Position numbers and translations under genes: made by a program
Notes under the pieces: model-generated
Database searches by the model: none
What the model was told of the DNA's origin: nothing
What the model saw: the letters and a program-made list of their open reading frames with translations, nothing else
In this document: positions 1-285 of the stretch, one piece after another
How positions within the stretch are numbered: position 1 is the stretch's first letter
Layout of the letters: every line of letters begins with the position of its first letter
From: a phage
Reading direction: 5' to 3' (one strand)
Length of the DNA: 285 nucleotides
Sequence record: AF419419.1

Positions 1-285
1 ATGGCTATGTCTAACATGACTTACAACAACGTTTTCGACCACGCTTACGAAATGCTGAAAGAAAACATCCGTTATGATAACATCCGTGACACTGATGACC
101 TGCACGATGCTATTCACATGGCTGCCGATAATGCAGTTCCGCACTACTACGCTGACATCTTTAGCGTAATGGCAAGTGAGGGCATTGATCTTGAGTTCGA
201 AGACTCTGGTCTGATGTCTGACACCAAGGACGTAATCCGCATCCTGCAAGTGCGTATCTATGAGCAATTAACGATTGATCTCTGG
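1..285 (+). CDS. ocr: Ocr anti-restriction protein (T7 gene 0.3 product; DNA mimic that inhibits type I restriction-modification enzymes); 3'-partial, first 95 codons, CDS continues beyond the window
   Basis: Seen in sequence: ATG at 1-3 and an uninterrupted frame-1 ORF to position 285; frame 2 stops at 17-19 (TGA) and frame 3 at 11-13 (TAA); the minus strand is interrupted by multiple stops. The translation matches the N-terminal ~95 residues of T7 Ocr as I recall them ([25 protein letters not shown]...IDLW). Composition is strongly acidic (13 Asp + 6 Glu versus 2 Lys + 4 Arg in 95 residues), as expected for a DNA-phosphate mimic. Codon usage (CGT, CTG, GAC, AAC) fits a highly expressed early coliphage gene. 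No alignment was run. Confidence 0.95.

Follow-up and report, generated by a model that had tools for sequence, protein, structure and literature searches.

GATC sites formed by G:C to A:T transitions in a mutated allele of the bacteriophage T7 ocr gene

GATC avoidance in T7 and identity of the window

Enterobacteriophages reportedly avoid the tetranucleotide GATC, an observation said to go back to McClelland in 1984. The T7 genome shows the classic form of this depletion, and the statement in an earlier note on the present DNA that T7 is strongly depleted in GATC was borne out by counting: 6 sites were found in 39,937 bp compared with 141 expected from a Markov model and 155 expected from base composition. 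The resulting observed/expected ratio of 0.04 was the lowest among the 16 palindromic tetramers, and T7 gene 0.3 contained no GATC site. Depletion is achieved through context-dependent codon choice. Across all T7 coding sequences, Asp codons preceding a C were GAT in three cases and GAC in 128 (3/131 GAT), whereas Asp codons preceding any other base were GAT in 304 cases and GAC in 341 (304/645 GAT; Fisher p = 1.5e-27). Similarly, Ile codons following a codon ending in G were ATC in three cases and ATT in 116, compared with 288 ATC and 190 ATT codons in all other contexts. GATC avoidance in T7 thus takes the form of a sharp codon-context rule. The selective forces behind such avoidance remain unclear according to the authors of a study of phage phiX174, in which restoration of 20 GATC sites lowered the mutation rate with no obvious growth defect; among the forces put forward to explain counter-selection is the cutting of unmethylated GATC by MutH (Deschavanne and Radman 1991; PMC5014478). 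The product of T7 gene 0.3, the first early gene downstream of promoters A1-A3, is Ocr, which blocks Type I restriction-modification and BREX systems at the protein level; no inhibitors acting directly on Type II enzymes are known (PMC12707154).

The window analysed here, a complete stretch of 285 nucleotides, corresponds to codons 1-95 of T7 gene 0.3 (ocr) and is 98.2% identical to T7 positions 925-1209. Overall, 280 of 285 nucleotides and 92 of 95 residues are the same as in T7 gene 0.3 and Ocr (V01146 925-1278; PDB 1S7Z; PF08684). The translated window matched the Pfam family PF08684 'DNA mimic ocr' over profile positions 1-93 of 101 with a score of 192.2 bits (E = 2.3e-57), exceeding the curated cut-off of 25 bits. 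The same 92 of 95 residues agreement was obtained with the structure 2y7c_D across residues 1-95, and 1s7z_A matched the same residues (E ~5e-58). Reading frame 1 begins with an ATG at position 1 and is open through codon 95, the start codon and frame being shared with T7 gene 0.3; the window ends 22 codons short of the T7 stop codon, such that the final 22 codons of the gene lie outside it. Only two off-frame open reading frames were present, each of 31 amino acids, and an Rfam scan of both strands of the window at E values up to 1 produced no match. The edges of the window coincide with the gene 0.3 ATG and in-frame codon 95 with no flanking DNA, an arrangement resembling an extracted partial coding sequence rather than a random genomic cut. 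Features of the window are listed in Table 1.

Table 1. Positions of the gene, the GATC and GACC tetranucleotides and the missense changes in the 285-nucleotide window
Feature	Coordinates	Strand	Basis or comment
ocr allele (DNA-mimic anti-restriction protein)	1..285	+	T7 identity; PF08684; PDB 1s7z/2y7c
Intact GACC, Asp13 GAC followed by C	37..40		T7 state kept; one G:C>A:T step from GATC
G79A, GAC>AAC, D27N (D26N in mature-protein numbering)	79..79	+	T7 comparison
GATC site 1	187..190		Asp63 GAT (187-189) followed by C; GACC in T7; C189T, synonymous
C217T, CCT>TCT, P73S	217..217	+	T7 comparison
C251T, GCG>GTG, A84V	251..251	+	T7 comparison
GATC site 2	277..280		Asp93 GAT (277-279) followed by C; GACC in T7; C279T, synonymous

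Five one-directional changes and the loss of local GATC depletion

Five differences from T7 were identified (G79A, C189T, C217T, C251T and C279T). Without exception they are G:C>A:T transitions, three being missense, a pattern that the earlier note had overlooked. To establish direction, the window was compared with an outgroup set of 23 IMG/VR loci comprising the entry for T7 itself and 22 relatives, the most distant with 64% DNA identity. G79, C217 and C251 were present in 23/23 loci, C279 was present in all close relatives and C189 in most. As the outgroups carry the T7 bases, the T7 state is ancestral and that of the window derived. In the encoded proteins, P73 and A84 were invariant across the 22 relatives, whilst residue 27 was D in 18 of these and A in the other four. 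The proportion of missense changes (3/5) compares with the 62% non-synonymous changes expected for unselected G:C>A:T transitions in this frame and, together with the alteration of two invariant residues, fits an absence of purifying selection. The split between strands of four C>T to one G>A was not significant (p = 0.375).

Exactly two GATC sites are present in the window, at 187-190 and 277-280, each consisting of a GAT Asp codon followed by C as the earlier note had described. That note had proposed that the sites arose by GAC to GAT transitions, and this was confirmed, since the T7 reference reads GAC with no GATC at both codons 63 and 93 and the outgroups agree on the direction of change. 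All four Asp codons that precede a C (codons 13, 33, 63 and 93) are GAC in T7, and those at 63 and 93 are GAT in the window, which therefore departs from the wild type T7 pattern of GAC before C and a GATC-free gene 0.3. The expectation that two sites would be unusual for wild type T7 also held, the probability of at least two GATC in 285 bp at the T7 GATC density being ~9e-4. When judged against the window's own composition, the sites were not in excess: dinucleotide-preserving shuffles of the window gave a mean of 1.66 GATC, with at least two in 98/200, and the expectation calculated as GAT x ATC / AT was 2.46. GATC enrichment over the composition of the window was consequently rejected (shuffle mean of 1.66 versus two observed). 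The window has lost the local GATC depletion of T7 and is not GATC-enriched; it represents a local erasure of the T7 codon bias and adds nothing on the cause of the avoidance. In addition to the GACC at Asp13, two further sites one step from GATC remain intact in the window, GACC at 97-100 and GGTC at 208-211. A T7 record, GU071091, carries a C190A change inside the GACC tetranucleotide that is GATC in the window, and this is probably a coincidence.

The new GATC sites could be subject to Dam methylation, MutH nicking or cutting by MboI/DpnII-type enzymes. Among the motifs checked, Dam/GATC was the only one altered by the five changes, with no motif for EcoKI, EcoBI, EcoAI, Eco124I, Dcm/EcoRII, EcoP15I, EcoP1I or EcoHS BREX gained or lost. 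The earlier note had attached meaning to the presence of restriction targets within a gene that protects against restriction. This suggestion was not sustained: because Ocr counteracts Type I restriction-modification and BREX as a protein, with no known inhibition of Type II enzymes recognizing GATC, the location of the sites within ocr is incidental, and a functional link between their location and Ocr function was rejected on the same protein-level grounds. As regards the protein itself, an Ocr carrying D27N, P73S and A84V may be impaired, judging from the invariance of P73 and A84 in the 22 relatives. In a search of the Ocr literature for the substitutions found in the window, only D26N was described, within designed multi-site mutants; it forms part of the Ocr variants Mut1 and Mut2, neither of which was among three variants inactive in vivo (PMC3439906).

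Comparison with natural relatives and with mutated T7 isolates

To place the allele among known phages, sequence records matching the window were compared. The closest natural relatives were no more than about 93% identical to the window, and among the matches listed the interval from about 93% to 100% identity with T7 in this region contained no natural phage, with all records more than 96% identical being T7 laboratory records. There were 109 records at 95-99% identity, and those listed in this band were all T7 records. A search of phage records for the exact allele gave wild type T7 as the best match at 98.2%. No T7 record was nearer to the window than wild type, indicating that the five changes are missing from every record that matches T7 at all other positions of this stretch. 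In IMG/VR and GTDB genomes there was no match to a 42-mer covering both C189T and C217T, a pattern requiring both GATC sites was absent from JGI metagenomes and the allele was not detected by megablast in plasmids or complete E. coli genomes. The 95-residue protein, also when completed with the T7 C-terminus, was absent from a 15-billion-protein collection in which wild type Ocr was found on 248 contigs.

The spectrum of natural variation differed from that of the window. Over the same 285 nucleotides in 16 close relatives, 36 of 104 distinct variants (34.6%) were G:C>A:T with respect to T7, the remainder being reverse transitions and transversions, and 64/104 were synonymous. Under this natural spectrum the probability of five out of five changes being G:C>A:T was 0.005. 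The earlier note had also considered that the window might derive from a relative lacking GATC avoidance, a suggestion at odds with the presence of only 5/285 differences from T7 and with the close relatives being themselves GATC-depleted (0-7 observed versus 35-58 expected per 11-16 kb). Some more distant phages carrying ocr were much less depleted, with 16 GATC versus 46.5 expected in relative L024 (IMGVR_UViG_638276014) and 9 versus 31.8 expected in relative L027 (IMGVR_UViG_2627853805), and the strength of GATC avoidance differs across this group.

GATC sites were nevertheless observed within natural ocr genes. GATC was present at 37-40 in 8/16 close relatives, at both 37 and 97 within the same 285 nucleotides in relative L008, and at 187-190 in the Yersinia phage phiA1122. 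The distant relative L027 had GATC at both 187 and 277 and was the sole relative with a site at 277. The presence of GATC at these one-step positions in natural relatives indicates that such sites are tolerated in nature. Sites in natural ocr genes nearly always coincided with a GACC of T7, formed by an Asp GAC codon and the C after it, the one exception being GATC at 202 in the distant relative L030, and the Asp-rich ocr gene represents a local cluster of near-GATC sites. The phiA1122 and L008 genes, natural ocr genes of Teseptimavirus, resemble the window in having GATC at GACC one-step positions, but are 91-93% identical to it, contain mixed substitution types and conserve P73 and A84. Their ocr genes differ from that of T7 by ordinary divergence and not by a one-directional spectrum.

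A matching spectrum was found in the T7 isolates K, K115, P and P82 (AY264775-AY264778, with K115 being AY264776 and P82 AY264778). K/K115 and P/P82 reportedly stem from the work of Bull et al. 2003 (J Mol Evol 57:241), in which lines were mutagenised with nitrosoguanidine and then recovered. Genome-wide, K115 had 414 and P82 had 320 substitutions relative to T7, of which ~90% were G:C>A:T, and C>T and G>A changes occurred in about equal numbers. Per-site rates in K115 depended on the preceding base, a 5' purine being preferred (GG 0.037, AG 0.027, CG 0.010 and TG 0.007). Substitutions averaged 3.1 per 285 bp in K115 and 2.3 in P82 (a density of 0.8-1.1%), and 285-bp bins with at least five substitutions made up 18% of the K115 genome bins and 7% of those of P82. 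The window, with five per 285 bp (1.75%), exceeds both means. In the same 285 nucleotides of gene 0.3 there were five G:C>A:T changes in K/K115 and two in P/P82, none of which was shared with the window, indicating that the window represents an independent lineage or event. The allele displays the spectrum of the K and P lines, which is overwhelmingly G:C>A:T at ~1% density with missense changes included. At a G:C>A:T fraction of 90%, the probability of five out of five such changes was 0.59, giving a likelihood ratio of ~119 over the natural spectrum. The mutated G residues of the window lay in GG (three), CG (one) and TG (one) contexts, and for these five sites the likelihood ratio of the K115/P82 context weights over uniform weights was only ~2 (hand calculation).

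GATC sites had also accumulated in these isolates, with 21 in K115 and 23 in P82 compared with 6 in wild type, having arisen from GACC/GGTC. Their gene 0.3 sequences contain no GATC, unlike the window. In the corresponding T7 segment, changes at five positions (39, 99, 189, 209 and 279) among 134 G/C positions would create GATC. Under a uniform G:C>A:T model the probability that at least two of five changes fall on these positions was 0.011. All GATC-creating positions are, however, 5'-GGT-3' by construction, being derived from GACC/GGTC, and this is among the most mutable contexts in K115 and P82. When pooled K115/P82 trinucleotide rates were applied, the expected share of changes falling on the GATC-creating positions of the window was 8.2% and the probability of at least two of five rose to 0.057. 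Since the feature was chosen after it had been seen, two GATC-creating changes among five require no explanation beyond chance. In K115 and P82, GATC-creating sites had mutated at rates of 0.0375 and 0.0416, respectively, compared with 0.0326 and 0.028 for other GGT sites, and 15 and 17 GATC-creating events were observed where 13.0 and 11.4 were expected. A rate at least equal to that of other GGT sites indicates that new GATC sites were not purged from these viable lines and were not counter-selected in them. In K115 and P82, selection acting on individual GATC sites was therefore too weak to be detected, in agreement with the phiX174 GATC-restoration experiments and with a literature in which the effect of each site is small.

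Origin of the allele

Taken together, the most probable reading of these data is that the window is a T7 ocr allele generated while selection was relaxed by a mutational process specific for G:C>A:T, the GATC sites being incidental and probably neutral by-products. Wild type T7 gene 0.3 would have acquired five independent G:C>A:T transitions to give the allele, and candidate agents include alkylating mutagens such as nitrosoguanidine or EMS, hydroxylamine and cytosine deamination. The process most likely acted with little or no selection on ocr, for example in laboratory hosts that lack Type I restriction. T7 avoids GATC partly by using GAC before C, and each such GACC, like each GGTC, is a single G:C>A:T step away from GATC. 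Such sites, lying in the 5'-GG context favoured in mutagenised T7 lines, received two of the five changes and became GATC in passing. The source of the window would be a mutagenised or mutation-accumulation lineage; like the agent, the relaxed selection and the neutrality of the sites, this is an inference.

A related possibility is that cytosine deamination, enzymatic or spontaneous, rather than a chemical alkylating mutagen produced the changes, the GATC sites again being by-products. Possible routes include a targeted deaminase-T7 RNA polymerase mutator or a base editor, deamination of the non-transcribed strand associated with transcription, and growth in a host deficient in uracil repair. 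Although the non-transcribed (+) strand shows C>T at four of the five positions, as such a process might produce, the 4:1 split is compatible with chance (p = 0.375, as above). APOBEC-type deaminases prefer TC/CC contexts, whereas the bases 5' of the mutated C residues in the window were A, G, G and A, with T for the one on the minus strand, and three of the five sites are in the 5'-GG context of the K115/P82 lines. Deamination is accordingly considered unlikely. Changes of non-biological origin, through DNA damage or sequencing artefact in which deaminated C is read as T, or through in-silico base changes, would also be exclusively G:C>A:T. Absence of the allele from the public collections searched, and a window running from the exact ATG to an in-frame codon 95 in the manner of an extracted fragment, would be in keeping with such an origin. 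In degraded DNA, however, C>T changes occur near the 5' end and G>A changes near the 3' end, whereas no end-clustered damage pattern was apparent in the window and the lone G>A is its 5'-most change. An ancient-DNA-type damage pattern was rejected on the basis of these positions. The reading frame also remains open, although this was to be expected in 86% of cases anyway, and an artefactual origin is judged highly improbable.

Ordinary divergence in a natural close relative or wild T7 strain, possibly with relaxed GATC avoidance, could account for GATC at one-step positions, as these occur in the ocr genes of phiA1122, L027, L008 and 8/16 close relatives. Against this stand the gap between about 93% and 100% identity, populated above 96% only by T7 laboratory records among the matches listed, the low probability (0.005) of an exclusively G:C>A:T set of changes with zero A:T>G:C and zero transversions, and the two missense changes at residues invariant in 22 relatives. 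The close relatives examined were, moreover, all GATC-depleted, and this origin is regarded as very improbable. An equally improbable source is a T7 lineage, whether natural or evolved over a long time, that has genuinely loosened or reversed its avoidance of GATC, perhaps on a dam- or mutH-deficient host or on one with different GATC-directed enzymes. Were this the case, Asp63 and Asp93 would mark the beginning of a shift from GACC/GGTC to GATC across the whole genome, and the source genome would provide a direct measure of the strength of anti-GATC selection in T7.

An origin by G:C>A:T-specific mutation of wild type T7 ocr is consistent with what is already established, as the gene, its function, the avoidance of GATC by T7 and the G:C>A:T signature are all known biology. 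The useful outcome is the recognition of the window as a mutated T7 ocr allele; it represents neither a new relative nor a novel feature of regulation or restriction. Mildly useful by-products are the codon-context rule by which T7 avoids GATC and the accumulation of new GATC sites in two heavily mutated T7 genomes.
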